A stretch of 64,000 bases of DNA from Candidatus Omnitrophota bacterium (lineage in GTDB: Bacteria; Omnitrophota; Gorgyraeia; Gygaellales; Profunditerraquicolaceae). Both the position numbers and the translations under genes were made by a program. The notes beneath the pieces are model-generated. The model did no database searches. It worked only from the letters and a program-made list of their open reading frames with translations, and was not told the DNA's origin. Every line of letters begins with the position of its first letter. The stretch's first letter is position 1. Below, piece by piece: positions 1-64,000 of this stretch. The stretch covers positions 14,932-78,931 of the forward strand of contig JAUSED010000005.1 of NCBI GenBank assembly GCA_030650425.1. Reading direction: 5' to 3'.

Positions 1-3000
1 GGTGTCGGGACAGCTCTATTTGATGAGTTCAAAAATAGGGCATTTGATGAAACCCGATGGAATGTAGAGCGTATCACAAGCAGTGAAATTTTTGAGAACG
101 GAGCGGCCCTTAAATTTTGGACAAAGAAGGTTGGGCCGGAGAATATTGAGAAAGAACATCTGTCTATCAATGGTAAAGAGGTCATTGTCCACTACGTAAA
201 TTATTTTAAAGATTCAAAAGGCGCCGCCTCCAGCCCCGCCGCAGCATTTACTTTTGGCGCGGTGATAAAGATGGAAGGTTCTATTCTGCGTGTGTCGACG
301 TCTTCGCCGACCTTGGTCTTACCCATACATCATGAAACCCATCAGTGGAATCAATACTTTGACATCTTAAGCGGTGATGAGGGGATCGCCGTTATCAAAG
401 AAATATTGGATCAAGATACAAAAGCCTATATAGGTTTTGGTGATATGGTTGGAGTCCGCGTGATGAATAAGGCCCATAGCGAATCTTTTATTAATGCCCT
501 TATCCCTTATTCTGTCCGTATCGTTAATAACGTTATGGTGAAGTATGGCGGCCGCGCGATCCGTATTGGAGGCGATGAAATCGGGATTATTCTGCCTTCT
601 GTATGGAAGCATAAAGAGGCGGAAGCTATCCGGTTGGAGGCACAGCAGGAAGTCGGGAATTCCATCTTGGGCAAATTCGGATTCGTAAAAGTTAAATTTA
701 CAAATATCCCGAAGAAGGAACAGGCTAGAGTCTTGGAGTTGGCGCGGCTGGAATTGGGCAGTAAAGAGAACTTTTTGGCCGGCTTATATCTGGACCATGA
801 TGGCATCCTTATTGTTTATGACAGGTTCGGCACGACTCTTGAGAAAGGCCTTGAAGATAATCTGATTCTTTTGGGCGCCCGGTTGGCCGCTGAAGGTATC
901 GGGGGTTCTGTAAAAAGCATTGGTAAGCCGGTTGAATTAGCCAGCCCGCGTGTGCTGTTTGGCGTAGTGAGAGCGCCTGTGTTGGAAAATGTGCACGCAT
1001 CCTACGGCGCTGCCATTAGCTACGCTGAGCGTATTTTAAATCTTGCCAAAAAAAGAAATATCCCGGGCGCATTAAGAGCACGGTTTTATAAAATCTTAAA
1101 GACTTCCACGCTGCCGCCTATTTCAGAAGAAGAGAAAGCCGCGATTATCGCGGATTTTCCGGAAGTTAAGCTTTATCCGGATCAAATTGAAGCGTATTAT
1201 CCGGTCTTTAACCGTAAGGCGCTGGTTAACATTGTCGGCCAGGCGTTTCAGTTCAGTGGAGCGCAGCTGGTCAAGATAGAGTCTAAATATATGCCAAGAA
1301 ACGGTTTCGCGGCCCGTGTGCAGCGAGCGATTTACCGGGGAAGGGTTACAGTTGATGCACTAAGGGGTGACGGTAAAGGCTGGTTTGGATTCAAAGTAAT
1401 CAATGACTTTAAGAATCACCAAACTGCCAACCAAGTTATTCTCTCAAATGCCCAAGCCATTAATAAGGTATTGAGAGATCAAAATATCGCAGGCGTCTTA
1501 GTGGTCAGGGCACCGCCGGATAGCTTCTATTTGGTTGTCCCCGGTACCAAGATGTCCATTTTTACTCCGCAAGAACTTGTGGCTCTGACAGACGCCATCG
1601 AAAAAGAAATGAATAATTCCAAACCGCTCCAAACTATTCAGGCCAGTGTGCGGCTGACGGTTAATTCTGTTTCCAGTGAGGATGAAGGTAAAGGCATTCA
1701 TCCTCTCATTTCAAAAGTGGATAATCTAGCTAAGGTAACAATGAGTATCCCGTTCTTGGCCACAAAGGGTGGCAATGAAGTCAAGATATTCAAGCGTGAA
1801 TTTAATAGAGGGTTTGAAAGAGAGCTTGGTAAGTCAAGGAGCGTCGAACGTAAGAAATTCCAGAGTATCTTAGGAGTTACAGCTTTGTCTTCCACCAGCT
1901 CTCCTGTGGGTTTTAGCCCGTATGCATTCGAAGTTAAAATTTCCAAAGATAGCCGTGACTTGCTAGATAAAGCTTTGGCAGAAAAACTATTAAAATTACA
2001 GTTTGAGATCGTTAAGACACCTGTAGCAGAAGACGTGCGCACCACGGTGGCCGCCTTCAAAGGTGTTGGTTCGGACGGTAAGGATGTTCTGGGATTGGCA
2101 CGTAGCGTACAGAATGCCGGCAGCTTAAGTGCTTCTGCTGATGCCGGTTATAGCCTGATTGAGATTATTGACCGATTATTGGCTGACGGCGTGCAGGATA
2201 TTAAGCTTGTGCTCATCTATTATCCGTCAACGGCCAGCACATACGTACCGTCCATGAAATACTTGAATAATGGGCTTCCTAGAGAGGCAGCTTTCCAAAC
2301 TGTGATTACGCCGGATAGTAAACTTGGGAAACAGGAAGCGCTCAAAGAGCTGAAGGATGTCGTTGTTAAGGTAACCAAGCACGGAACAATAATCAATGCC
2401 ACTAATATGAATGGCAATAAAACCACGGTCAATATTGCCTGGGCCAAGGGATCCTCTTCGCCGTTCACTTCCAGCCCCGCAGCCGCAAACCAGCTTAAGA
2501 TTCTGCTTGTAGATGATGAAAGTAGTTTACGCGAGTTAACGCGTATGTTTTTAGAAATGAACGAGAATAAAGTTGATGAAGCAGTAGATGGCCAAGAGGC
2601 GCTAGAAAAGTTAGGCAGCACTAAATACGATTTAATTCTTACTGACTTAGATATGCCTAGAATGGGTGGCCTGGACTTGGCGCTTGCGGTCAGTCAATTC
2701 AGCAGAGGTGAATTAAATGCAAATACTCCTGTCATTATGACAAGCGGCAGAGGAATTAAGGCGGATATTATTTATTATATTGAAAATGAACTATCTGGCG
2801 CAGCCGATAAACTAAAAGTAGTGGAAAAAATAGCAGGATTCTTGAGTAAGCCATACATGAATAAGGAACTTATAAAGATGGTGGATAAAGTTATCTCGGC
2901 CAAGGAAAATTCTTCTTCTGAGGATAGCGGCTCTAGCCCCGCTTCCACAAAGCTTGTTAGTATTAGCAAAATAGCCAAAGATTCATGGGCAAGATTTACT

Positions 3001-6000: not shown

Positions 6001-9000
6001 TACGCGGTCAATACGCAAGGCGAGCCAATGAGCCTTCCTACAGGGCACGGAGCGGTTACTCCTTTAAGCCTTGCTTCTTTAGCCTCTCTATATTATGTTT
6101 TCGCGGCAGCAAGATTCGATCCTTTAGAGAATATCAAAGTGAGTTCTTCGGTACTGCGGAACCCGCAGAATGAAATTTTCTTAAAATATGCTTCTTCAGC
6201 CGGTTTAAACCGTGATGGGCCTATTGGATTAGCCTCTAGCCCCGTAAAATCTTTTAGTTCTTTAGTTACCTCCGTTTATAAATTCTTCAAAAATACTTTT
6301 ATACAAAACCCGCTTTACTCGTTTGTTGTGATAGCAACATTTGTCGTAAATATCTACGTTGCCAAACTACTTTCAGAGAATATAGTTGCGCTTCCATTTG
6401 TTGTCTTATCCGTTTTATTAACATTGCAGAGTTATTCTATGATTAGTTTCGGTATCGCAGCCCTATTTGTTAAAGGCGCAAGGCCCCTAGCTCAGTTAGA
6501 ACAAAATGATTTGCCTCAAGTTACGGTTCAGATCCCAACGCGCAATGAACCGTTTGAAGTCGTAAGGATGACCATTGAGTCGGCAATGTCTTTAGATTAC
6601 CCAAGGAACCGGCTTGAAATTCAAGTGATCGATAATTCTGATTTATACATAAAAGACGCGGCAGGGGAGTTACGGCCTAACGGAAATTATTTGAGAATTA
6701 AAGAGTTCGCGAAGAACAATGCTAATAAAGGATTAATTTTTATTCACCGCGATGGGACGCAGGGGTATAAAGCCGGTAATCTTAACTTGGGCATGAAAAC
6801 AGCCGCTGGTGAATATTTCTTAATTTTAGACGTAGATTCAACGGTAGCTAAAGATACCCTTTTAAGCGCGCTCCCCGAATTTAAACATAACCACAGCCTT
6901 GGATTTGTGCAATTTGCTATGGAACCTACAAACACAGAAAATAATTCTTTAACAAAAGTGCTGGCGATAGGAGCAAGAATATTACGTTCCCAACAGGCGG
7001 CAAAGACAAAATACGGGTTTACCCTTTTCTATGGCCATAACGGTATTTGGCGAAAGAGCGCGCTTGATAAGATCGGCGGGTGGCAGGCTACTGTTTCTGA
7101 AGATACTGATACAGCGATTGAGGCGCGCTTGGCAGGTTTTTATGGAAAATATCTGCCTTATGTAATCAGCGGAGAATGGTCTCCTACGAGCTTTGCGGAG
7201 GTACAGAAACGAACGCGAAAATTTGCATTTGGGACAACACAGTTATTCTTTCAGAAAGTTATAAGAATTTTAGCCTCAAAAGCGTTGCATTGGTATGAAA
7301 AAATAGATATCCTGTTACATTTATTGAAATATCCTCTTAGCGCGACTATCTTACTTTTAGTTTTCTTGCCGTTCTTTATTCCTTCGCAAACACCATTAAT
7401 ACTGGGGATTTTTATGATGTATATAGCTCCATTAACTCCTATTTGGCTTCTACTGGTCAAAGATTTAATAAAAAGTGATTATAGAAATGCTTTTGAGACG
7501 TTGCGGAGAATTCCTGCCATGACATCAATATTTAACGCAACGATTCCTGCTATCGCAATAGGAACTATATTTGCGTTGGTTGGCAAGCAGGAAGGATTTA
7601 AAATAACCTTTAAGGGAAAACTAACGAACCCTTTATTAGCCCAGGTTATTAAAATAAACGCATTCGGTATAATAACCGGTTCAGTTTATTTCGTTATTTT
7701 ATGGATATTTTCGCCTTTGCAGAACAATATTGCGTACTTACCGGCTATGACGATGGCTGCTGTTCTTATAGGGCCTTTTAGGCATAGTTTTGCCAGGGTG
7801 GCGCAGAAACAGCCCGATGTAGGCCTGCCGAATATACTTGATTTACTTGAAGAAGGGCTTATTCATACTCCTAAGTCTTATGGTTCTGTAAACACAAAAA
7901 ATACCAGAATTAATAATAAGTGGGCGAGCATCGGGTTTGATTTGACGCGGCCTGTTGATGTAACTCATTATGACTATTTAATTGTAAGGGTAAAGGGCGC
8001 GCAGGGTGGAGAACGCATTCAGGTGAATTTGCGCGATAATCTTTGGGAAGACTATGATACCCCGCAGGCAAAGAGTAATATCGTTCCTGATGCCGGATTG
8101 TTGAGAGAAAATTGGCAGGACGTAAGCATTGATTTAAGCGCGCTCCTCAATAGGGAACGCATAGACCTAAGCCATTTATCGCATTTGGCTATTGAAATCG
8201 GCCAAGACACTGTTGGTAACCTGTCCGGAACAGAGATTGAAATTGAGCGGATTTATTTTGTTAGCTCGCCTGTATCGCCACATCAAAGCGTTTCTTGGTC
8301 GCCAGCAGTTATAGAAAGCAATCTTAGGGAACTTACAGGCCTGATTAATAGGATTATTGCGTTAGCAAGGAATCCGAATGTGAATAATAAAAAGATAGAA
8401 GGATACGCAAAAGACGCCACGATCATAGCCCGAGAATTAAGGAATAATGAGGCAAATGAAAGCGCGTATGCTCGTGAATACAGGGAGCAGGAAAAGAGAT
8501 TAATCAATGTGCGGAATTCAATATATTATAAGAAGAATGATGGCGGAAGGAATATTGTCGGCAATAAAATAAGGCGTAATTACGAGCGTAAATTGATGTT
8601 CGGTTTCCTTTTAACCAGAAATGAAGTTAAGGACTTAAGAGCGCTCTGGAGAGAATTCGATGTCCAATGTCTCTATGGTTATAATTTCGAGAGTAAAAAA
8701 CTACTTACTCTGAAAACATTGGCCAAGGCTTACAATAGAGTAGGGGATATTGGTCTATTAAGGCCTATTTTGGATCAAGTAATTTCTTATCTTCCAACAT
8801 ACCTTAGGCCGTCAAGAAGGATAGCTTATATATCTTTAGAGAGGGCCTTAAAAGCATATGAAATGTCTTTATATGATCTAGAAGCGGTTTTGGAAGACTT
8901 TGAAGAAAAAACAAATGGATTTTTTACCGCAAAGAGGGCCTACACAACCTATTTACAGCCAAAAGCAGAGGAATTATACGCTACGGAGCAGCTTTGGGAA

Positions 9001-12000
9001 GATTTTGAAGAGGGATCAAATAAATTCTTTGACTTCGGGGATTATTATAGTTTTTATCATCTCTGGCGTAAAGAAGCATATTATAACGCAAATAGGGCTA
9101 GGAGAGGAAAGCGGGGAACGACGAAGAAATTCGATGATTCCAAACTAACCGCAAGGCCGATGGAAGCCACGTTGAGGCTCGCGAATGATCTTACAAGATA
9201 CAAACTACGTGAGGAAGGCAGGTTCGATGAATTATTTAAAGATAACGAAGGACATTCCGGTTCGCCTATAGAGAATACCGCAAGAGTGCCACAGAAAACC
9301 TTCGGCGCGGTGGTCAAATGGTTCGGGGAGGCAGCCTCCAGCCCAGTTGCTCCAAGGCCGTCATTACGAACGAGCGCGGCGAATGAAGCAATCTTGCTTT
9401 TAGGGATTGCTTTGTCGTCCGCCATAGAGCTTAGGCGGATTCCTCGCAATGACACAGGTGTTAATGCTAACAGCAAGCTTTACACGCAATTTGCCGCCTC
9501 ATCCGGCATAACGCGCGCCGGGCCGGCAAAATTATTAGCAGTTTCATTAGCCTCTTTATTTATCGCGGGCGCAGCCTTATATTTAGGTTATTTGCTACAG
9601 GCCTTTATCTCATTTAATATAGGCTATTTATCTGTTATTCTGATTACCCCATTTATATATATCGGGGTATTGTTTATCTCCGCGTTCATTCGCATTAAAT
9701 TAAGCAGCTACATTAGATTATCGAGGTTGCCTGATGTCTTACAAAATAATCTGCTTATCTATGAGAAAACGTATCTTGAAGGTAAAGGCGAATTCAGCGC
9801 ATATTGGGCGCAGATTAAAGATTTATTCTCTTCCAGGCCTTTTATAAGCCTTATTGGCATAGCTGGTAGTATCGGAATACTCCAATTATTATCCACAGCC
9901 ATTGCTTATACCATTCCCGCAGGGTTAATAACTGGGCCGTTATTGACAGCGGTCATCTTCGGCATACCCATTCTAGTTGCCCTCATTCCTTTACTAAAAG
10001 CATTGCTTTTAATTTTACCCGGTGGCGAGAAAGAAGAGCCGCTTGCGTATTTAAAATATTTAGGCTTTCATATCGCAGGGGTAGTTTTAGGAAGTATGCT
10101 CTTTTGGAAGGGGTTAGTTGTTATTTTACCTTTCCTGAAGTCTCCGATTTTAGCTTTTAGCCTGTTTGGCCTTTCTTTAGCCGGCTTAGCCCTGAATCGC
10201 TACTTACTCAAACGGCCGGGATTAGGCCTGGCCAGCGCTATTCTAGGTGTTTTAGGTTTAGGCTTAAGCAGTGACCCACTGGTAAAATATTTAACTTTCC
10301 TTACGCCCTATATCTTTGAAGATCTAATTTCTTATTTCATTGTGGCGACATATTTCTCCGTAGGCATAAGCATAGCGATAGTGGCATTAAACGCAATCTT
10401 CCACGATAAAGAAAATAGAAAATTGGCGATAGGGACCAAATTTACTATTCCAATTGCAGCCGTAATTACGATTTTAACTTCTTTACTTATCGGCCTTTAT
10501 TTCCTTAACCCCTCTATGGGGCATATCATCAAGCCGTTTATCGTTGCCGCGGGTTTTGGCGCAATTGCCTTGGTGGGTTATTTAAGGAGCGGTTACCGGA
10601 TAAAGAGCCTGGCAATTTCCTCTTTAAGTAAAAAAGAGCTAACAGCTAAAATTAAGAAAAAGTTGTCCCCGGAAGTATTTGCGGCTATCCCTTTCCATAG
10701 TTACAGCAGATTGCAGCTGCGTTCCATCTACCTATTTATTTTAGAATTAGAAGAAAAGCCGGGAGCTAAAGCGCAGGATACTGATGAACCTAAGGATTTA
10801 ATCAAGCGTTTGATGATGGCCAGGGGCGCTTTTCTCTTTGCCGGTATCTTTGCGGAAGTTATGGATGCGGTTTTGGAAGTGCTGGAGCTTATGGAAAGAG
10901 GCACCAAGTGCCTACCGCCTATTTTAACCATTCCTTATTATATCGCGGCCAGCTTTGCTCTCGTGCCGTATTTTGTGGGTAAGGTAGCAGTAGAATTCTT
11001 TACTTCCCATATACATAGGAATTATGAGCGCCTGGAAAAGCTTAATAACGCGCCTGCGCTTGAGGTCGCCAATTTGCAAGAAGAAATCTTAGCCAGGGCC
11101 AACCAGAAATATACTCTCCTCAGGCATTTAGAGGATGACGCCTCAGCCAGTAATAAAGAACATCCACTCTTATCCGGCTTAGTCAGGATTGCTTGGTCCA
11201 GAATTTTCATTGTTTTGGTCGGCTGGCTCTTTAGCGGCCCGGTTGCCTTGGCGTTAGTTACTCGCTTCCCGTATCTTTTTGCAGGTGAAGCTGATTTCTT
11301 AAGGAGCCTCTGCGATTTATTGCCGGCTTACTTGAGCCAGCATCTAGAGCCTAGCTGGTTTAATCTCTTAAGGGTCTATTTTCTTAATTTGGTGTTATCC
11401 TGGGGCATTGCCAAGAAAATCAGCGAAGATATCAAAGCAAATTTCGCGAGTAACTGGCACTATCTTTGGATTATCCCGTCAGCAATCGTAATTTATGCGC
11501 TTAGCTCTTTAGTCTTTCCGGCAATTGCCGCCGGCTTTGCCCAAGTCCTGCCGCAAGGAATAGCGATTATTCTTGCTATGGCTAGTTATTCGCTCTTGAT
11601 TATCGGAGTCTCTAAGATAGTCAAGAGGAATGCAGATTTTAAAGTCTTGGGGATATTGCACAACAGCTTGAGTTATCAAGTTGGCTTCTGGGTTTCTTTT
11701 GTAGGATTATTGATTATCGGCGTAGAAATCGGCTTAGCTGTTGTCTTGGCGCACATTGTAGAGGGGCCAATAGGCGATATCCTGATAAGCTGGGAAAGCC
11801 ATAATGGCGTAATTAATTTAGGTGATGATGTGGTTGGAGGCTTGGAAAGAGGGGGAGAGCAGGGTATCAAATTCGCCACAGGCAAAGAAGTTGAAATTAA
11901 CACGAGTGGCTGGCTGTATAAATTATTCGGCGGCATAGGCGAGTATCGGCAAGCGCAATGGGCCGCGCAATCAGGTTCATTGGAACTTTATACGGACAGG

Positions 12001-51000: not shown

Positions 51001-54000
51001 ATTACGGGTGGGAAAGGAAGGGAATTATTTCGTTCTGATTTGGAAGACAGGTCGGATTGCGTGCACATGATAAAGCTGTATTCACGGGATCACTTGGCTG
51101 TTCAGGGTAGCTGGAAGCCAGTAGAATATAAAAATAATTATTGGTATTTAAATACCCAAGAGTTCGTTAATCCTATTGATGCTAAAGAATTAAGCGAAGA
51201 AGATGGCCTATCGATTATCAAGGACACAGTTAAGGCCTATTTTATCACTTGCGGAATTGATGAGAAAGGATGGAGGAAAAATAAGTTACCTTATATATTC
51301 TCGTTCCCCATAGACGTAAAGCTCGCAAATGTAGGTTTTATTATAAAAGAGGGTAGAAAGATAATTAAAATATTTGATATTGATTTGGCTAGAGATTCCA
51401 CTCCTTTTAGGATTTGGCTTGTTTTAGGCACATTAATGATACGAGCTTGGAGTAATAATAGCGCAGAGGCGATATTTAAAGGGATAGAAGAAGCAATGGG
51501 CAAGAAGAGTGCTAACGAGTTTATAAATATAGCTTATAACGAATATACGGATTTACTTTCTGAACCAAACTTTACAATTAAAGAAAAAGAAGAGGGAGAC
51601 ATTGAGATGTCCGAAACAGTACCTGATTCTTACGGTAAGCATACCCGTATAACGAAGGTATCTAAGCAATTGATAAAATGGTTTGTTGAGCGATCAAGCT
51701 CGCCGGTGGGCAAATTTAGTATTATTAAAGGCATGGATGTAGATAGTAGATTAGTGGATGGAGTAACCAATATTAATTACGCTATAGGTAATCAAAGATA
51801 TGCTTGTTGGGTGGATGATAATGCAGCCATTATTAGTAGAGCTAGCGTTTACACTAATCATACCGTGATTGCCTATCTAGGAAATATAATAATAGGTTAT
51901 ACGGTGTTCGGGCCGCTATTTCATTATCCTATTTATGTATATCAAATGGCAGTTATGCCGAGGTATCAAAGTAGAGGTATAGGAGCAGGGCTATTTAAAA
52001 AATTAGTAGATTTTTCACAAGCCCAGAATATTCATAAGATAACCTGCCATGTGAGTATTAATAATCCCTCTGGAGAATTTTACTTTAAATTACCTTATAG
52101 GCTCAAAGAAATCGCTGATATTGAATACGTTCCAGATGGTATAGCTCCCGATAGTAGTCAGATTCTTAGAGTTGAATATAGGATAGAAGCTTCAGGCAAA
52201 AATGCTTTAAAATCCAGCTCTCCGGCGGAGAACTACCGAATTCACAATAGAAGTAGCCAGGAGCCAAAAGTATCTTTACTGTTTTCAGCAGTTACTACTA
52301 TTGATAAATTTACGCGGAATCACGTGTTTAGTATTATCGTCCTTGGTGTGTTTGCTTATGTATTTCTTAAACTGGGATTGTATCCGGATAGGATCATCAG
52401 CGGTAAAGCAAGCGGATATTTTGATATCTGCCTGGAAGCTGTCAAGGCCACAGTTCTTAATAAAGAATTTCTATGGAAAACGGGCCTTGTTTATCTTGTT
52501 TTCGGCACGCTAACGGATTATTTAGCAAAGCGCGCAAACAGAGAGACGTATTCATGGAAAGCGTTTAAAGGGGTTATAAAATATTCTATTCTAAAGGCCG
52601 TTTTTGTCTTTGTGTTCTTTATTGCCATTGCCGGGTTGGATAAATTTTGGCGCGTAATCTTCTCAGGAATTTTGCTTGGTTTTATCCTCTTGAATATCCG
52701 CAAATGGATGTTCTATTCTGAATATCAGGAAAAAAAATCAGAGGCATTGAAAAAGCGGACATCCGAGATGTATTGGCTGACGCGGATATGGATTTTTGGC
52801 CAGAATTTTATTGTGCAGGTTTTGTTTCCCATAGAGCGTAGGGCGTTAGCCAATGCCATAATTTCACAGCTGCATTCTTTGTACAATAGCTATGGATTGC
52901 ATGAACAGGGACCGTCTCTTATTAAAAGAGAGCTTTTGGTAACTAAGATAGAAAGCTCGCTATTTATAAGATGGCTAAGGTATGCCCAGAAGGCCTTAAA
53001 TGATTTCATTGTAGTTAAGTTTTCGCGCGCGAAGGTTAAATTTATTAATAAGTTCTTTGGCAGGGCTTGGGATAATTCTGCCGCACTCATAGTCTTTGGT
53101 TCTATTGCGCCATTTGTTATAGCGATTGATGCGCTGCGTAAAAATAGTTTTCTGAAGAATAAAGCAGCTGGGATCTTACAAGATCAACGGGGGAAATCTG
53201 TCGATCTTGATTCTGGCCCCTCCAGCTCGCCGGTGGAGTTAGAAAAAGCCAATAAGCAGTTTATACTTGAACAATTAAAAGAAGCTTTCTTGGGAGAATA
53301 CAATCGTTCCTTTGAAGGAACGTATGGAGTGGAATTGATAAATTCTGTTTTTGATATTGTTACACTTTTACAGGATGAAAATGTTATCCACAAAAAACAA
53401 ACAGCCCATAACCTACTCTTCACCAAAACAGAGCAAGGTTTATCAAAAGTCTATATCTTTCCCAGAAAATTCCAGACCCCTAGTGAACTTGGTACTGGTG
53501 TCGCTTTTTTTGAATTAGGCGGTGAGTTGATTGCTTTGATCAAGGAACATAAAGACATCCCAGCAGATAGTAAAATAACCAAAGCCTACGAGGATATTAC
53601 TAGCGTAGAAGAACTTATTCCAGAACTCGAAAATACCAGCTTGCCTGAACAGGAATTAAAAAATTTGAAAGAAAAGGTCGTTAAGAGGTTTATTGCCAGC
53701 TCACCGGTGAAGAAGATAATAAAGATTAACTTACTTCAGCAGCCCCTTGAAATCTTCTATGGAGATGGCTGCTCCTTTAAGAATAGCACGCAGGGTTCCG
53801 GGTTTGATAGAGCTAGAACCATGGAGAGGAACAACAACTCGGCGGGTCAAGTCTTGAGAATGGCCGGGATGGGCAAATTATCTTCTTTCATAGTTTCTAT
53901 ATATAATGAAACTGCCTCTTTTGCGTTACGTATAGCTTCCTCCAGAGTTTCTCCTTGCGTAGCGCAACCTGTCAAGCTGGGTATAGTTACAGAGAATCCT

Positions 54001-57000
54001 CCAGAAGGCTCTTTTTCAAGTATTATTTTAAATCTGCGTAGCATTTTTAACCTCCTTCTTGATAACATAGAGTATAACCTCTTCGGTAAAGTAAGTCAAG
54101 CCAAAACTGCGGATGCATTATTTAGCGTCCAATTTGCCCATAGCTCGCCAGTGGAGCCAAAAGGAACAAAATCGGCCTTACCTTATCTAATAAATATAAT
54201 AACTTTTGAGAGTAAACTTGGGGCAATGGTGATTGTTGCTTCAAGCAGCATTTTAGTAAAGCCGGATAGCAAGGCAAGTTTGTATCAAAAGAGTATTAGA
54301 GCAAGCTCTTCGCTTAAAGGTATCCACACAGGGCTTTCTCCCCCGGAAAGAATTTATTATACCGCCTCATTCAATCTCTCTATCGCAGATATTTCTTCCA
54401 AAACTTCCTCTTCGCCAATAGGTTCCATAAACGGTCTACAATATCTTGTGTCCCCGGAATTAACCCTTATGATTTTAACAGGCCTTAAATTTATTGTAGG
54501 GATATTGGGTATAGTAGGATTGATTTTGCTCTTTAAGATAATAAAACGAAGATATAAGCGTATAGAAAAATACAGAATTGAACATTTCTTTGCCCGAATA
54601 GATAAGGGAGATATCCGGGGAAAGGATGATTATGATAAATTGATAAAAATGATCAATAAAGAGATTTATATCTCGCCATCCCTTTTTCCATCCCCTTTCT
54701 CTTATAAAACATATTTCCACGAGGCAGCGCTGCAGAGATTTGGCAAATTCATAGGCTTTTATTTCTCCGAGATGCTTGGTTCTCTTACGTCTTTGAAAGG
54801 AAGGGGAGTCTCAGAGCAGAGGCATATTTTTAGAGGATACGCCTTCTTACCCATAAATGTTTTATATCGTGTTTTATCTAGTGATGAATATAAGGGTATG
54901 CAGAATATAGCTTCTAAGCATATGGAAACTTTGCTGGGAAAAATAACGGATATAGAGCCCTTAAAGATGCTGGTTAATTGTTACGATGGCCCAATTTGCG
55001 GTATGGTCGGTTTTCGTCTTGGCAAAATAGCAGATGTATCACTTATTCCTCTTATGGCAACTTGGTACAATAGCTGGGGAAATGAGCGTATTGCTGCTGC
55101 TGAAGCCTTAGGGTCTTTGATAGGCAAGATTATAAGCGATATGAATATTGATTATTTAGAGATGGTTTTGATGGACCCTCGACTTGGAGACTTTCATGAG
55201 CCTGTTTTTGGCGCTCTCTGTCTCGCGCTTGGGGAGAAACGCAGAGAGAAACATATTCAAGGAGAAAAACTGGAAAGGTTTGCCAAGCTTTTGGCAGGCT
55301 TTATCAAGGGTAAGAAAGGTGAGGTTACAACCCGTGCCGCAGGCTGTTTAATCCAATTAGGAGAGCCTGCAATGATGATATATCTTCAAGACTTGACAGG
55401 AACGAAAACTGGTATGCCTGAACAACTCCCTATACTGCCTGATATAATCAAGTGGGCTACCGAGAATCTTCAAGATATATCTATATTAGGAAAGCTTTTG
55501 TCTGAAGAGAGATATACCGGGGATAATGAGGATTTAAGAATAACAATTATTAAAAGCTTAGCTAAGATAGCTTCCCCTGAGGCTTTTGGGACTATGATTG
55601 AGTTTTTGGATAGAAATATAGGTCCCGGAGGTATCAATAAATGGGAAGTCGCGGAGGATATGTTTTTATCGCTAGTCCGCCGGAAGAAGGCAGAGGATAT
55701 GGTTTTATCGTTAGCCCTTAAGAATGTAAAATTATTGCCCTTTGCATTAGTTTTGCTAGGAGCAACAGCTGTTCGTAGTATTATTGTTTGGCGAAAGGTG
55801 ATGAAAAACCTTGGTGAAGGTTTAATAGATAGCATAGTGAAGCAATATGAAGAAGCGCCTAAAAATGAGCGCTTAAAAGTTGAAATTGTCAGGACCTTGG
55901 GAGAGAATAAGGTTAGGGTTAAAGAAGCGATTGATGTGCTTGAGCGAGCTCTTGAGGAGAAGTTTCCTTCCTTCCTTTCTTTACATGCCGCCTTGGCGCT
56001 TTTAGAAATCGATCCCTGCCGCTCCTGCCACTACAAGATGAAGTTAGAAAAACGTAATTTTTTAGATTCAATTTACTGGCCACGAAGAATTCTTACGGCC
56101 AAAAAAGGCAAATATGTTTTACAAATTGTAATAGATGCTAGAGGTGTTTATCGAATATTTAGGCCTGGCCAAAGACCAAAGAATTTTAGAAAGATACCCC
56201 TGAAATTAAAAAGCATATTTGATAGGGGTAGAGGGCTTATAGAACCAGCGATTGCCCCTGAGAAAAAATCAAGAATTGACGAATTCCTGGAGTTGGCAGC
56301 GCAATTAAACAAGAAAATTTACTCCAGCTCGCCGGTGGAGGCAAAAGCGGCTGGAAATCAGGGAGCCAACTGGCGGCGGGCCAATTTTTCACCCGAGACC
56401 TCACTGCTCTTTGCTATCTTTCCACTCCAAGAGCAAAAGAGGGCTCTTAAAAGATACAGGGCCTTAATGCGGGATGCGGCCAAGATTATCCCAGAGTATA
56501 ACAGGCCAGAAAAAAATGTAGACAGTTTATCCATCTCATCGCCTGTCAATGAGTTAGAAAACAAATCCGCAACGATAGGCCGCTCCAGCTCGCCGGCGGA
56601 AGAAAATAATTTGATAGAAAGGTTATTTCCGGTAGGCGTCTTCTCGAGTATCTACTCCATCGATGACAATGCTCCCGCTGACAAGATAGAAACAGATACG
56701 ATATTTCCCAACTCTAAATCTATGAGTGGCGGGAGGCAAGTTAACCAGAGGCTTTGCGAAATAAAGTGGTTTACCGGAAAAAATGTAGAGGTCGATCTTT
56801 TCTATGACGCGTTTCTGCAGTGGAAGAGAAAGCTTTTTAAATTCCCGTTCGCCGGCAGGAGTGAACTCAACCTTGGTAAGCATAGCAGGATTCAGGACAT
56901 CCCTAATTTATGCTTAATTTTATCAAAGGAGACCAATCCTAGCGCTTGGGCCTCCTCAATTCCTCTCTTTAATCTTGAAGCTAGTTTAGGATTAATCGGC

Positions 57001-60000
57001 AGGCGCTCTTCAATCCCATCAATAAGCCAGCCACCAGGATTAGAGAAGACGTATTCTTTAGCGGGAGCAGACTTCTCAAATCTGTCGTCAAACGCGCAGA
57101 GTAGATCCCACAGGGAGCCTGTATCAAAGATAAAATATTTCGGGGCTCCATTTTTATCCACAACGGCCGCGGCCTTGAAGTCCTTAAGTTCCGATTTCTT
57201 CAATTTTTTAGGAATAGCCGCGAATTTCTCAATGGGTTCTATTTTGACAGACTCTTTTGATGACTTAACTAATGATTTTGATCTCATTTCTTCATCCTCC
57301 CTTATTTATAAACAGTATAACACATTCTTTTTCGATCTGTCAAGCCGGATATCGTTAACGAATAATAGGGGTGGTTCTATTTTAAGTAATAAAAATCGCT
57401 CCAGCTCGCCGGCGAAAGAGATAAGATATGATGCGGATGAGGCACAGGATGTATCTCTTGGCCTAAAGCCAATAAAAGCTGTGGTTGAAGCTGCGCGGAG
57501 CCTCATTAATGGATTAGATAAAAGGACTATAGGATTAAGTAAGGTTAAGGGAGAGTCTGTTATCGTGCAGTTTAAAAATAAAACAAAGCAGGAGAAAGTT
57601 TGGCTTAACTTTGGCACAAAATTAAGAGATTTTGTTTCGCTGATGGAGGTAAGATTACTTTCAGATCCAGATATTAAGGTAAAAGTCTTGATCAATATGT
57701 TTAGCAAAGACAGAAAATTCTTGCTAATTTTTTATACTAATGACAAGGTTTATTTCTATGATACTTATGGAGAGATAGGGTCTTTAATTAAATTAGATAA
57801 GAAGGCACAAATATTGGGTCTTGAAAAGTTATTAAAAAATAAAGCGGTAAAAAGTTTTATTGATTACGTCCTCATTGGATATATTTCTCAACCAAAGTTT
57901 ATCAATGAAATTATTAAAATTTATCCTGCCCGTCCCTATAAGGCTAGGGGGGGTACAGAGCTTCGTTTTGATAAGACGGGCTATGAACTTCCTGATAGCA
58001 AAGAGACAGAGTTGGGAAGGATTCTGGAAAAAGAAATGGTCATCGTAACAGATAAAATAGCGGAGGGTAAAATATTTACTATTTTACTTGAAAAAGATTC
58101 GCTTAATAAAGCCGCTCCACACTATCTTTTATTTTTATCCCTATGCGATAGGGTACAACTTTATAACGAAGCCGGTTTTATTGTTGAATATATCAAAGAC
58201 GGGAAAAATCACGGCTACAGCGATAACCTATTCATCAACACCTTTCTTCTTAGTATCGCTTTTAAGCAAGAGTCAGCATGGAAGACTTTAGATTTAGGCC
58301 GCCAAGCGACGCACGCGATTGTTATTGGCGGGGCAGATAGAGGCTCTTTAACAATTCCAACTACAGGTATAACTTTAGAAGCATTGAATATTCGTAAAGA
58401 CGGCGGGGCGTGGATACCTGTTAAGCGGATAAGAAAAGGCGATATCATCTCGGGAGTTTGCGGTTTAGGGGGAGGCCAGTATTATGTTGACGGTATAGGA
58501 GCGCCTTTAGGAGACAAAAAATTCCCGGCTATTCTTTTAGAAGGAAAATTAAATCTTCCAAGTGTAATCCGCTGGCTATCGCAAGATGGCTCCAAAGAAA
58601 ACATCCCTGTTTCAGAATTTTTGAAAGAACTTTTTGGCAGCCGAGCAGAGAACGGCCAGAGTAAAAAGATTATGTATAGATTAGAAAAATCTAAATCCAA
58701 AAGGCCGGTTTATGATAGAAAAACAGCTCAATGGTTGGAAAAAGTTGTTTGGATCATCGTTGATTATGGCAGTGAAGAAGAATCAGGAATATATACATTG
58801 AATAAAGTCGTTGATAAGTTGGTAGAGATGAAAGGAAAGTTTAATCCCCTCTCTGTTTATATCCTTAAAGATTTACGCAGGGCTATTATTGAGCATCTGC
58901 CTTACGCAGCTTTAGCCCAACAGGAGGCAATTGAACGCATTCTTTCATTAGCTTTGCCGCAAGTGAGCCGAGAATTAGCCGAAAATCCACAAATGCAAAA
59001 ATGGATAGGAACGGCTATCCGCGGTTTATGTCAGGCAATAAAAATTAACCTAATCTCAGCTTTAAGACTACATGCTTTATTGGCAATCGAATATTTAATG
59101 GTTACAGAAGATGTCAAGCAAGAAATAAATGGGTTAATAAAATCCCGCGTTCTTAATGAAAACAAGGGAAATAAACTTCGAATTATAGATACGGCTTTGA
59201 TTTTAACAGTAAGGCTAAATTCAAGCCCGATTCTAGCCCCGAGAAGCACTTTAGTAAAGCCGGATAATAAAGATTATTTACTTCATCTAGAAAGTATTGA
59301 GGCAAGCTCTTCGTTTAAAGATATCCACACAGGGCCTTCTCCTCCGGGGATAAATTATTATCTCGCCCCATCCAATTTCTCCGCCATAAATATTTGTTTT
59401 ATAACTTCTAGTTCACCAATGGAAGAGAAGGCAGATAATTCTGAAAATAAGTATCGTGCCCCCGGAATTACGCGCTCTAGCTCACCTTTAAAACGAAACA
59501 ATCGCAGGCAAGATAGAACATACATACCATCATCTTTAGAAAGATACGGATATAATTTGGGCCAGTATTTCGATAAGTATTATGCTAAATACCTGTCCGG
59601 GGGGATTATTGCTAAACTTGAGGAAAACGGTTATTTCGAAACCCTTTTTGGTACGTATGTAAACACGCCTACGCCTAATTATATAGAACTGGTTAGTGAT
59701 ACAGAGCTGCAAAGAAAGATTGGCCTGCTCTACCTGAGCGGTTTGGGATTCCTGATTGAAGATGGGGTAAGTTTTGCCTGGACAGAGGGGAATTTTATAC
59801 ATCCGATATCAGCAAGGCCTCTTAATATAAAATACGCAGAAAGCGAAGATTTATTCCTTAGAGTAGAGCTTATATTGCAGAATATGCCTTTAGCTCAGCA
59901 GGATGAGTTTATAAAGATGCACTTGGCGCCGATCTTGTGTAAAACCCCGGAATTCTTAGATAAATTGATTACCTTAATTTTAAATATGCTCGATATAGAA

Positions 60001-63000
60001 GATAAAGAAGGATTGATTAAAGATTTAGAAAATTCCTATATTGTTGTTAAGGAGAGGAATTTACCTAAACCTTCGATGTATATTTTGCGGGAATATCTTT
60101 CTACCTTAGTCTTGCATGAAATTGGAGAATGCATCTTTTTTGTCTTACCCGACACTCTTAAGGAAGAGTGGAGGACTTTAGTTACCAGGGAAGTCCTTCC
60201 TTATCTTGGCATCATATATCTTAGGGGTTATGGTAAAGCGATTATACAAAGAGCGCAGGAAATATCTGCACAAGGTGCATTAAGGCTTGGCAGATTGGAA
60301 GAGGAGTTCTTTGCCGATGCCTTTACAGTAATCTTTGACAGGAGGAAGAATATTTTTGCAGAATTTGGAGAAGGGATCCGTGACGAATGGGAAGAGTTCA
60401 TGATTAAGAAAGTAAAGCCATACTTAATCAAAAAGCACAACTCTGGCAAGAATAGCTGGCAAGTTGAAAGCGGAGAGATCATTAGAATCTATAGAAATTC
60501 AGCCATAATTGAACCGAATGATGTAGAAGAGTCATCGAGGGAATCTTCCAGCTCACCGGCGAAGCAATCCTCTTCTCCAATCGAAGGCTATGCCGTTGTG
60601 ACGGATGGTAAAACTGATTCTGCCGCCGAAGAGGGCAATCCGGGAGCACATTGCTCAACAGCTTTAATCTCCAGCTCAGCGATGGGTATAAGCCGCAGAA
60701 GCTTTATTAAAAATAGCTCTTTGGTTTTATTGGGTCCGTCGAGATTAGCCTCTCTCTTGCGTTATTTAAGCGCGTTATCTTTGGCAGGCTGTGGCGGAGG
60801 CGGCGGCACGGAAAACCAGGCCCCTGCGCCTCTTCCGGCCCAGACTGAACTGGAGTGGATAAAGAGCAGGGTTAACCCCTCAACATTCCTTGCGGAAACT
60901 TACCAAGGCCTTTCATCAACAGACCTCTCCTTTAAAAAGTCCTTCATTTACGACCAAGGTTTGGCTATCAGGGCCTTAGTGGAATTTGGCGGCCCGGAAG
61001 AGTTTGCGCTGGCTGAAAAGATGATTGATGCAAACGGAAACGGAAACGTAGACAGTTTATCCAGCCCATTGTCTGCCATAGACTTAGAAAACAAATCCAA
61101 AATGACAAGCCGCTCCAGCTCGCCGGTGGAGAAACAAGGTGAAAGATTAGAACTGATCCTAACTTATATAGGCGATTATCTTTTACGCAGCAGCTCAAGA
61201 AATTCATTCGGAGATAGAATATCAAAGCCTTTGGCTTTGAGTACGAGAATGTCTTTGTCTAAGCTCACTAAGGGGACTTTTGATTCTGCAGCTAAGGACA
61301 GGATAAAATCATCTTCGCAATCTCTACAGATATCTAACTCGAGGCGGGTTTTGAGCTTATGGCTCTTGTCGTCAATTAACGCCACAAGTTCCTTTGCTTC
61401 ATTAGCGGGAATAAGCCTTTTAACCTTTGGTTTACTTAAAGTATCATTGAGCTCTTTTAGTAATTTCTCAGATACAATTAGCGTAAATTCCTCATTGATA
61501 AATGCGTTTAAGATAGGCCTGGTCAATGAGCTATTCATCAGCGCGCTTATCCAGATATTCGTATCAATGACAACCTTAAGCATATTAATTAGCTTTTCTT
61601 ACTTTCTTTACAATGCGTACAATTTCGTCGTTAGAAAGAACCCTGCGGTTCTTAATCCGCTTGTCGATTCTAGAGATGAGATTCTTAAAGCGCAATTGCC
61701 AAGTCTCCAAGTTCAACCTTCGGGCAATGATCAGTTTTTCTTCCAATGGAAGTTCTTCTATAAGATTCTCAACCTGCTTAGTATTAAGTTCCAAAGTTAC
61801 TTTAGACATGTAAAACACCTCCTATCATTAATAAACTACTCGTCAACAAATTATAACCCAATGCCGCCTTTGCGTCAAGTTTATAATCTTCAGAGGATTG
61901 TGAATAAAGAGGAGAATAAAGGTGACGGTTCTATTTATTTCCAGTATTTCCAGCGAGAAAATACAGACAGTTTACCTATCCCATCGTTTACCAAGGAGTT
62001 AAGAAATAAATCCGTAATGACAGGCCGCTCCAGTTCGCCTGCGGAATTGAGTTATAGATGGAGTTTATTTATAAGGATTAGGGAAGGGGCAGATTATTTA
62101 CTCAATATTTTAAGACAACTTTCAGCAGTTAGTACTTTAAATGGTAGGTCAGCAGAACGACGGGATAAAAAATGCCTATTTTCTGTTACCAATGCATCTG
62201 CGCCTGTATATTCTGAAAACGCGCCAATAAGCGCGTCTGCGGGCTTAAGCCCTAAAGTTTCATATTTTGTGCCTAGTTCAAATGGCACCTCAAAGTCTTC
62301 ATCAATTTTAGTCCAAGCATTGATGAGAAGTATAAATTCCTTAAAGGCTTCAGGCGTTAGATTATCGCGCACCTCTTCAATGATTAAGCGCAGGATTCGC
62401 ACGGTGATATCTTCTGGACGTTCTGCTATTTTTTCAATCAGTTTTTCAGAAGGCGGATATCTGACTGCGCCTAAGGCAAAGATGTATTCATTACTATCGA
62501 GAATGAGCCGCAAATTTTGCCTCCCAAATCTTTTCACGAGTTTTACGAATTTTCTCAATTATTTCTTGCTTGCTAAGACCCCGGCACGGGGAGCTGACTT
62601 TGGACATAAGTTGTCGAATCTTGTCGATGCGCTTTTTAACTTCTTGAATATTTTTTCTCATAATTCTTCACCTCTAAGTAAGGTTAACATACCTAAAAAC
62701 TTTAGTCAAGTGGTTATTACTAATGACTACTTCAGTCCTCTTAGCCGTGGTGCTTCGCCGATTAAGCAGGGTTATCGTAGCTTTGCGGTGGAAGCAGCAC
62801 CTTCTATAAAGAAAGATTCTGCGCGCAAAACGCCGTTTAGGCCGAGTTCAAGTAGCCCTCTTGGTTCTCTTGTTACAACTCTTGGCGGATATCATTATAT
62901 CGGGTTGCGCCAAAGAATAGGACTGGATGACCATTTTGCCAATGGGCCGCCTGCGGTAGATACCTCTAGCCTATCAAGGATTTTTTCCATAACATCTTCT

Positions 63001-64000: not shown

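Follow-up and report, generated by a model that had tools for sequence, protein, structure and literature searches.

A giant multi-enzyme reading frame from an Omnitrophota bacterium stays open across predicted antisense toxin-antitoxin cassettes

We analysed a 64,000-nt stretch of DNA from a Candidatus Omnitrophota bacterium (GenBank assembly GCA_030650425.1, contig JAUSED010000005.1, positions 14,932 to 78,931 of the forward strand), called the window throughout. It is an internal segment of a real giant gene of more than 21,333 codons, whose single plus-strand reading frame encodes many different enzyme domains. In its 3' part, the opposite strand of the same DNA carries what we read as four small toxin-antitoxin operons, each lying between two copies of a short serine-serine-proline (SSP) motif that recurs in the giant frame. 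The giant gene itself is of an already described kind and is not new; the truly unusual part is that its frame remains open across antisense genes, the point that a preliminary description of this sequence had stressed least.

The giant frame and its nested antisense genes

Frame +1 contains no TAA, TAG or TGA in its 21,333 codons. Frames +2 and +3 carry 1,693 and 2,196 stops, antisense phases 0, 1 and 2 of the giant gene carry 1,180, 1,587 and 752, the plain count of the three minus frames being 1,588, 1,180 and 752, and the longest open stretch in these five frames is 612 nt. At a GC content of 40.4%, base composition gives a stop probability of 0.069 per codon and a log10 P of about -664 for 21,333 stop-free codons in a row, and a codon-usage log-odds score, with the window's first 52 kb as its training set, placed frame +1 on top in 211 of 212 sliding 600-nt windows. 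These counts bear out the preliminary description, which had reported a window-wide stop-free frame +1 at about 40% GC, stop-rich frames +2 and +3 with only short open reading frames (ORFs), an openness that needs selection, and a single ORF of more than 64 kb. The ORF leaves the window at both ends, so that 21,333 amino acids is a lower bound, and the statistics support the view that the open frame is upheld by selection. Reassignment of stop codons was considered and rejected, because all three stops are missing from frame +1 yet frequent in the other frames, and because they terminate the nested genes.

The nested genes are seven protein-like minus-strand ORFs, grouped in four cassettes within about 9 kb at 53.8-62.7 kb (Table 1). 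As far as sequence can tell, they are real type II toxin-antitoxin genes: a HicB gene, a RelE-like pair and two PIN pairs. They resemble known type II operons (VapBC/PIN, HicAB, RelBE) in having a small antitoxin gene followed by the toxin, a sigma70-like promoter with a ribosome-binding site, and sequence matches to PIN_3/TIGR00305, HicB and RelE-like proteins; unlike the usual operons, they lie wholly inside another gene, in antisense, and carry a second constraint, namely to place no stop in the host frame. Both 11/12 sigma70 matches in the 53-64 kb region directly precede cassettes 3 and 2 on the minus strand, and in cassettes 2, 3 and 4 the first gene has a ribosome-binding site ahead of it. 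By codon usage the nested genes are the top-scoring segments outside frame +1, and the frame +1 score drops to about 0 across the cassettes. In cassette 3, a single nucleotide separates the end of the 77-aa gene from the start of the PIN gene, whose acidic pattern (IDTN...E...CRD...DKD) is conserved in the alignment as judged by eye. The 86-aa gene of cassette 2 also matches a 'toxin-like protein' weakly (E 0.035) and has no Pfam, NCBIfam or PADLOC match; PADLOC and NCBIfam gave no match for five of the seven nested proteins. The PIN gene of cassette 4 probably has an internal true start. In cassette 1, the -10 box ends 2 nt ahead of the annotated ATG; the real start is probably the internal Met9, and the transcript may be leaderless.

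Minus-strand ORFs, family matches and coding scores revealed no comparable nested gene in 1-53 kb, where the other minus-strand ORFs of at least 90 aa were rejected as S/L-rich shadow ORFs with no family match and a low coding score. An exact-protein look-up returned no record of the nested PIN_3 protein as a called gene. The claim that the frame stays open across four antisense cassettes and their promoters therefore stands, with genes, promoters and ribosome-binding sites supported and 0 stops in the way. The plus-strand GC skew falls from 0.2-0.39 at 32-52 kb to 0.03-0.13 at 52000-64000, the cassette-bearing region, and Rfam and tRNA scans of the window gave no matches.

Two sets of observations speak to how one stretch of DNA serves both strands. 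Within the window, antisense phase 2, the alternative frame poorest in stops, holds the four longer nested genes, which have 0 antisense stops in that phase and 6-13 in either of the others; their three short partners occupy phase 0 and are free of TTA, CTA and TCA codons, for which synonymous resampling gave P = 0.002, 0.001 and 0.16 (the 86-aa gene having P ~0.002). Across assemblies, PIN_3 has 24 homologs of equal length, and seven distinct nested copies from JGI, ENA, NCBI and Logan assemblies have 0 phase-2 antisense stops in 7/7 cases. These nested copies are 58-78% identical to the window copy, except for one at ~35%, and their contigs are open across the cassette over their whole or nearly whole length (3.6, 6.5, 4.1, 14.1, 3.6 and 1.5 kb). 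In three more distant, non-nested homologs from ordinary neighbourhoods, stops of this kind number 4, 2 and 3, and the antisense strand has no open span. Differences among the nested PIN copies fall on codon positions 1:2:3 as 1042:597:1637, and against the closest relative (locus L011) the PIN protein is 78% identical vs 56% for the giant-frame translation of the same DNA, which indicates that PIN is under purifying selection and that the giant frame is mainly constrained not to stop. At the level of sequence comparison, then, these data show that the predicted nested genes are real and under purifying selection, that the nested arrangement recurs in independent assemblies, and that selection has kept the giant frame open through the cassettes.

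Homology among the nested PIN loci is confined to the cassette, and the surrounding giant-frame sequence is unrelated; collinear orthologs were not found among the relatives, which share single modules only, either the CofD module described below or a toxin-antitoxin cassette. Other giant ORFs hold other nested cassettes: a complete HicA/HicB pair in L005, PIN in L012, DUF2283 in L017, and both DUF5647/DUF7718 and DUF2283/DUF4258 in L052. About 45 kb of three other giant loci contained no nested genes, so that cassettes occur as islands, which in L012 and L017 lie within the final 0.25-9 kb of the giant ORF. A further locus, L031, has two membrane-protein genes of 64 and 80 aa on its minus strand (434-628 and 1712-1954, the second a weak DUF6722 match), antisense in a 12.7-kb open frame with two exact copies of the 19-mer junction motif treated below; nested genes thus include more than the classical toxin-antitoxin pairs.

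Antisense overlapping protein-coding genes in bacteria are rare, short, usually single and debated. The arrangement in the window is like them in that two proteins are encoded on opposite strands of the same DNA. It differs in that the nested genes belong to old and well-known families, that four operons with seven genes occur in 9 kb, that the arrangement recurs across diverged lineages, and that the dual-constraint signature is clear.

A recurrent in-frame junction motif

The giant frame repeatedly encodes the peptide [S/A/G]-S-S-P-[V/A/I/L]; in a logo built from 123 sites in seven giant ORFs, conservation is confined to these five residues. SSP occurs 47 times in the window vs 3.7 expected, none of 200 shuffles giving more than 11, and no SSP site in the window falls within a Pfam domain. 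At the DNA level, repeat analysis of the 53-64 kb region yielded a 17-nt motif, CTCCAGCTCGCCGGTGG, whose reference copy encodes S-S-S-P-V. With up to 4 mismatches it has 15 copies, starting at 1893, 48582, 50760, 51693, 52212, 53220, 53694, 54138, 56322, 56583, 57399, 60546, 60669, 61113 and 62028, all on the plus strand and in one codon phase; with up to 3 mismatches there are 11 copies vs 0.05 expected. In the 5' part of the window the same SSP peptide is written in other codons (TCT-TCG-CCG, TCC-AGC-CCC, AGT-TCT-CCC and others), which identifies the peptide as the conserved entity; around the cassettes the 17-mers are nearly identical, which suggests that they were copied or exchanged recently.

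The positions of the motif follow the borders of modules and cassettes. The CofD module starts and ends at SSP in the window, in L003 and in L004, and begins at SSP in L006, where the contig ends before the module does. Every nested cassette in the window lies between two junction motifs (53694 and 54138 for cassette 1, 56583 and 57399 for cassette 2, 61113 and 62028 for cassette 3, and 62028 and an SSP at 62665 for cassette 4), and the same is true of L005, L012, L013, L017 and L052. Other larger giant ORFs have 12, 23, 8 and 23 SSP sites vs about 1 expected; the split-gene homolog L001 has 0 in 3.6 kaa, and five other large homologs (P0027-P0031) have 0. In these comparisons the motif marks module borders and is specific to the fused architecture.

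An exact 19-mer scan of a metagenome collection returned 95 loci, of which 91 are chance or unrelated occurrences at 54-75% GC in short frames. Just three of the loci have low GC; in each of them the frame in phase with the motif is open over the full length, and in L052 nested cassettes stand on either side of the 19-mer. Nine high-GC loci (L037, L038, L055, L070, L072, L081, L090, L106 and L113) share an identical 465-nt open frame with two SSP; they are probably one conserved gene of a high-GC lineage that has the same 19 bases by chance.

An 87-nt repeat that ends in the 17-nt motif lies immediately 3' of each toxin gene in cassettes 2, 3 and 4, always in the same phase of the giant frame (Table 1). 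On the minus strand it overlaps the terminator-like hairpins and can itself fold as a long hairpin, with a few compensatory changes among no more than three copies; a role as terminator or as recombination site is possible, as is some other one. A role of the motif as an internal translation start was rejected, since inspection found no consistent in-frame start codon after it.

Viral polyproteins likewise carry many enzymes in one ORF, with short conserved cleavage motifs. The window resembles them in the succession of different enzymes and in the short recurrent motif at module borders. It differs in being a cellular gene, in its motif ([S/A/G]SSP[V/A/I/L]), at which cleavage is putative, and in having no protease domain in the window.

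Domain content and relatives

A Pfam scan of overlapping 1,000-aa pieces of the frame +1 translation revealed, in order, GGDEF, a response-regulator receiver (REC), a family-2 glycosyltransferase (GT2) with CBM30, LysM, a partial CofD-like region, GT5 and GT1, a ROK kinase, a second partial CofD-like region, a ROK-like piece, phosphoglucomutase/phosphomannomutase (PGM/PMM) I-IV, a complete CofD, a weak HATPase_c, GNAT and HEAT (Table 1); four CofD-like domains were counted in all, and large portions of the protein have no Pfam match. A Kyte-Doolittle hydropathy scan alone (19-residue window, threshold >=1.8) gave 42 candidate transmembrane-like segments in the window, with clusters at 22039-23400 and 25402-25839 besides the one in the table and scattered segments further 3'. 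The GT2 and CBM30 module (6514..8196) is bounded by SSP at aa 2079 and 2755, and an SSP at aa 14607 precedes the PGM/PMM module. The two copies of the duplicated module of ~1,180 aa (aa 10532-11710 and 12959-14133) are 47-64% identical, each contains a partial CofD-like region, and both terminate just past an SSP (aa 11701 and aa 14124). Between cassettes 2 and 3, the giant-frame protein has five homologs (E 6e-18 to 3e-5), and each of its two sub-modules lies within one SSP-delimited interval. Self-comparison found one large old duplication and a few smaller repeats, so that the protein is no repetitive adhesin and the earlier label of a chain of different enzymes, with which the diverse Pfam domains agree, is correct.

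Table 1. Features of the window, with the strand and the evidence for each (aa positions refer to the frame +1 translation).
Feature	Position	Strand	Evidence or remark
Stop-free frame +1, internal fragment of giant multi-enzyme ORF	1..64000	+	stop count, composition statistics, codon usage
GGDEF	1390-1725	+	PF00990 7.6e-9
Response-regulator receiver	2500-2799	+	PF00072 8e-18; SSP at aa 819/824 and 978 on its flanks
Family-2 glycosyltransferase with flanking transmembrane helices	6514-7407	+	Pfam, hydropathy
CBM30	7903-8196	+	Pfam
About 17 hydrophobic transmembrane-like segments, clustered	9529..11766	+	hydropathy
LysM	12232..12381	+	PF01476 8.4e-7
Duplicated ~1,180-aa module, enzymes between copies	31594..42399	+	self-comparison, Pfam
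GT5 starch-synthase	35161-35916	+	Pfam; between duplicate copies
GT1	36085-36552	+	Pfam; between duplicate copies
ROK kinase	37861-38835	+	Pfam; between duplicate copies
Phosphoglucomutase/phosphomannomutase I-IV	43855..45165	+	PF02878 8e-29, PF02880 3e-25, PF02879 7e-19, PF00408 3e-8
Full CofD-family module, aa 15617-16025	46849..48075	+	Pfam, relatives; starts exactly at SSP, ends at SSP
GNAT acetyltransferase	51850..52092	+	Pfam; in 173-aa module bounded by SSP aa 17233/17406
17-nt motif, reference copy	53220..53236	+	repeat analysis of 53-64 kb
Cassette 1: HicB-like antitoxin gene	53847-54068 (cassette 53847..54099)	-	PF15919 1.6e-13
Cassette 1: promoter TTGACT-17-TATACT	54099->54071	-	10/12 sigma70 match
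HEAT repeats, giant frame between cassettes 1 and 2	55864..56010	+	PF13646 4.6e-7
87-nt repeat 'D2', three copies	56514-56600, 61044-61130, 61959-62045		79-83% identical, each ends in CTCCAGCTCGCCGGTGG
Cassette 2: terminator-like hairpin	56583->56569	-	after 86-aa gene
Cassette 2: 86-aa RelE/ParE-like gene	56623-56883	-	weak full-length match, RelE-family toxin Rv2866 (E 0.01)
Cassette 2: 131-aa gene	56892-57287 (cassette 56569..57343)	-	ORF, codon usage
Cassette 2: promoter TTGACA-18-TATACT, GGGAGG ribosome-binding site	57343->57314 (promoter)	-	11/12 sigma70 match
Giant-frame protein between cassettes 2 and 3	57289..60888	+	two sub-modules with remote homologs
Cassette 3: terminator-like hairpin	61124->61104	-	after PIN_3 gene
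Cassette 3: PIN_3 toxin	61176-61583	-	PF13470 6.8e-18, TIGR00305 3.9e-25
Cassette 3: 77-aa VapB-like antitoxin	61585-61818 (cassette 61104..61878)	-	weak VapB15 match
Cassette 3: promoter TTGACG-17-TATAAT, AGGAG ribosome-binding site	61878->61850 (promoter)	-	11/12 sigma70 match
Cassette 4: PIN-domain gene	62094-62558	-	PF01850 4e-4, below Pfam cut-off
Cassette 4: 55-aa gene	62494-62661 (cassette 62094..62709)	-	ORF
Cassette 4: -35 TTGACT, AGGTG ribosome-binding site	62709-62704 (-35)	-	sequence

Several smaller repeats and one terminal feature were recorded alongside. A block of ~160 nt occurs at 29520-29682 and 50500-50664, 21 kb apart, ~95% identical and encoding 62 aa at 94%; its borders are sharp, both copies begin just past SSP, the flanks are unrelated, and it has the appearance of a small module that was recently copied or subjected to gene conversion. 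A Ser-rich module of ~140 aa occurs three times (48472-48882, 54028-54444 and 59158-59490) at 34-46% identity with 2-3 SSP motifs; copies 1 and 2 are followed by a transmembrane-like segment, and copy 2 extends over the promoter of the nested HicB gene and the gene's 5' end. At 63900-64000 the frame +1 translation ends in ...DTLTDLANNAIKYSGANKIEIKVF..., which by eye is N-box-like, as in a histidine-kinase ATPase domain, and suggests that a further signalling module may start at the 3' edge of the window.

The giant proteins reported from Omnitrophota reach 85,804 aa (West-Roberts et al. 2023, bioRxiv 10.1101/2023.11.21.568195) and 147,155 aa (Nielsen & Lui 2026, bioRxiv 10.64898/2026.06.07.730766). 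The latter study defined a class of 'multi-enzyme metabolic clusters' whose commonest Pfams are those found in the window, and the published repertoire comprises PF08323, PF00534, PGM/PMM, PF00072, ROK (PF00480), PF02518, PF00583 and HEAT (10.1101/2023.11.21.568195; 10.64898/2026.06.07.730766). Like these giants, the window has an ORF beyond 10 kaa (at least 21,333 codons), many transmembrane segments by hydropathy and the same diverse sugar-metabolism and signalling Pfams, none of which dominates; it is mosaic and sequence-unique, its nearest relatives by best hits are metagenome-assembled genomes (MAGs) of Omnitrophota, and its domains match the published Omnitrophota Modules 1 and 2. The window thus likely belongs to this class, as a membrane-anchored chain of sugar-handling and signalling enzymes. 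The preliminary description had set it apart from known giant bacterial proteins as repetitive adhesins: the window is indeed non-repetitive, but the comparison is outdated, since multi-enzyme Omnitrophota giants have been published. A divergent SecA DEAD helicase domain is reported in most full-length giants (West-Roberts et al. 2023, 10.1101/2023.11.21.568195); Pfam gave no match to SecA-DEAD (PF07517) or to peptidase domains in the 64-kb fragment, in which only part of the gene is visible, so that its absence is compatible with membership of the class. Unlike the present window, the published Omnitrophota giants come, in term searches of those papers, with no mention of antisense nested genes or of any motif at junctions or cleavage points.

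The best relatives of the CofD module are proteins and loci of Omnitrophota MAGs at 41-55% identity (47-55% for loci L003-L006), and those of the PIN cassette likewise come from Omnitrophota/Omnitrophica MAGs. In three of the CofD loci one frame is open end to end (21.2, 16.2 and 8.0 kb), and in L003 it is open for 13.2 kb before a stop; homology is limited to the CofD module, and the flanks are not collinear. In L001, an 11.1-kb Logan contig (SRR22388255), a 918-aa gene of its own encodes the CofD module; 53 nt further on comes a 1,106-aa radical-SAM gene, and after that a gene of >1,583 aa. L001 is a split-gene counterpart of the fused giant architecture. At L003 13024-13234 and L017 1208-1388, the end of the giant ORF overlaps the start of the next long ORF by 140-210 nt in another frame, so that giant ORFs can lie head to tail.

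Explanations and meaning

The explanation that we favour, and hold with good confidence, is a giant multi-enzyme gene built of junction-delimited modules, with nested antisense toxin-antitoxin operons that are read through. Enzyme modules would be chained with [S/A/G]-S-S-P-[V/A/I/L] junctions between them, and each of the four operons on the opposite strand in the 3' part would form a junction-delimited module of its own. Ribosomes on the giant mRNA would pass straight through the antisense of the operons, and the cassettes would lack stops in the giant's frame because they must be read through; the longer nested genes would be placed in the stop-poorest antisense phase, and their short partners would avoid TTA, CTA and TCA. 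Such read-through is rather likely, and we infer it because no other known force selects against in-frame stops. Splicing, bypassing or hopping, and DNA excision of the cassettes were rejected, as none of them would need stop-free cassettes. The motif itself may be a processing site or a linker, cleavage specifically being a tentative proposal. In either role, any stop-free insert between two junctions would be harmless, and the junction would let a meaningless antisense-encoded peptide be tolerated or removed. That the cassettes spread among giant genes together with their flanking motifs, keeping the frame, is possible but doubtful. We infer that they form a lineage of selfish or stabilising elements specialised to giant ORFs; as selfish elements they would exploit the one space in small genomes that tolerates insertions, and as addiction modules they would stabilise a very large gene. 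The most far-reaching version, in which some of the giants are stop-free 'operons' whose gene boundaries gave way to the five-residue junction motif, the motif is both a polyprotein processing site and an in-frame DNA docking site for the exchange of modules, and the antisense cassettes, stop-free in the host phase and set between junctions so that their nonsense peptide is cut out, possibly act as addiction modules guarding the huge gene against deletion, is speculative and also falls on the doubtful side.

Several observations weigh against the favoured explanation. A span of ~6,700 aa (aa 3113-9835) lacks any SSP, so that not all modules are set apart by the motif. An orthologous empty site did not turn up, the homologous cassettes and modules having unrelated flanks, and insertion events are therefore deduced rather than seen. 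Cassette 1 has no toxin, with no HicA ORF between 53694 and 53847, and both the cassette 4 PIN gene and the RelE-like gene score below curated cut-offs. The Pfam scan found no protease domain within the window for the putative cleavage at SSP. Taxonomic placement from the sequence draws on best hits; one related bin is labelled Planctomycetales, and there are no marker genes within the window.

Other explanations account for parts of these data. An origin of the long frame in faulty assembly or consensus, in a chimera or in non-natural DNA, rather than in one gene, has a next to negligible probability: misassembly cannot erase ~1,470 expected stops, codon usage supports frame +1 throughout, and independent JGI, ENA, NCBI and Logan assemblies share the architecture, nested cassettes in open frames included. 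The nested genes could be decaying, functionless relics within a giant frame that alone matters, as the orphan HicB of cassette 1, the weak scores of the cassette 4 PIN and RelE-like genes and their omission by gene callers might suggest. We think this very improbable, given intact ORFs of family-typical length with a canonical promoter, ribosome-binding site and operon order, conserved PIN acidic residues with third-position-biased substitutions, and, where both are read from one DNA, a higher conservation of the PIN frame than of the giant frame (78% vs 56%). It is also improbable, less markedly so, that no single protein runs through the cassettes, the effective end lying upstream through transcription termination or ribosome rescue, or the modules having internal starts, with the tail kept open for another cause. 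Such an arrangement would fit the homologous modules that are separate genes in L001, the position of the L012 and L017 cassettes in the last 0.25-9 kb of their ORF, where truncation costs least, and the frame +1 codon-usage score of about 0 inside cassettes. Yet no force but ribosome passage is known to weed out in-frame stops, and its traces can be seen at nested synonymous sites and in seven diverged PIN lineages; coding signal and homologs resume between and after the cassettes (HEAT, remote homologs), a histidine-kinase N-box-like LANNAIKYS, recognised by eye, stands at the window end, and by inspection no consistent in-frame start follows the motif.

The 17-nt motif could instead be primarily a DNA recombination site of an in-frame, integron-like cassette system, with SSP as its mere translation. 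Chromosomal integron arrays, such as Vibrio superintegrons, carry toxin-antitoxin cassettes, and the window is like them in having several promoter-bearing toxin-antitoxin cassettes in one orientation, each bounded by a repeated site, with a possible stabilising role for a large deletion-prone region. The cassette-flanking motif is moreover conserved at synonymous positions and GC-rich in a 40% GC gene, it keeps one orientation and phase and is identical in another species (L005, L052), homology between giants begins and ends at it with unrelated flanks, and the 87-nt repeats stand at the 3' ends of three cassettes. Unlike integrons, however, the window contains no integrase or recombinase in the Pfam scan, its cassettes lie kilobases of coding sequence apart, and the whole array is in-frame in an ORF; the SSP peptide is kept with different codons in the 5' two-thirds, which points to selection on the peptide, and an attC-like structure would rest on three repeat copies with weak covariation. 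A primarily recombinational motif is thus unlikely, and it would in any case be compatible with the giant gene of junction-delimited modules that we favour, the two not being exclusive.

Whether giant bacterial proteins act as one chain or are cut into pieces, and where, is a question already raised for them; the cleavage points are unknown, and this missing information blocked analysis (West-Roberts et al. 2023, 10.1101/2023.11.21.568195). In the relevant preprints and the full-text literature that we searched, we found no account of antisense genes nested inside the giant ORFs of bacteria, nor of a motif at the junctions or cleavage points of such ORFs. The SSP sites are concrete candidates for where giants might be cut. 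About 4% of the stretch is the antisense of other genes rather than meaningful protein, which corrects the reading of giant 'proteins'. Standard gene callers hide the nested genes. Long-lasting dual coding by the two strands is also seen here with a clarity unusual in nature, in known families and with a measurable second constraint. For the organisms that carry them, the data suggest that giant genes are built from modules joined at a common in-frame junction, and that embedded addiction modules possibly stabilise them.

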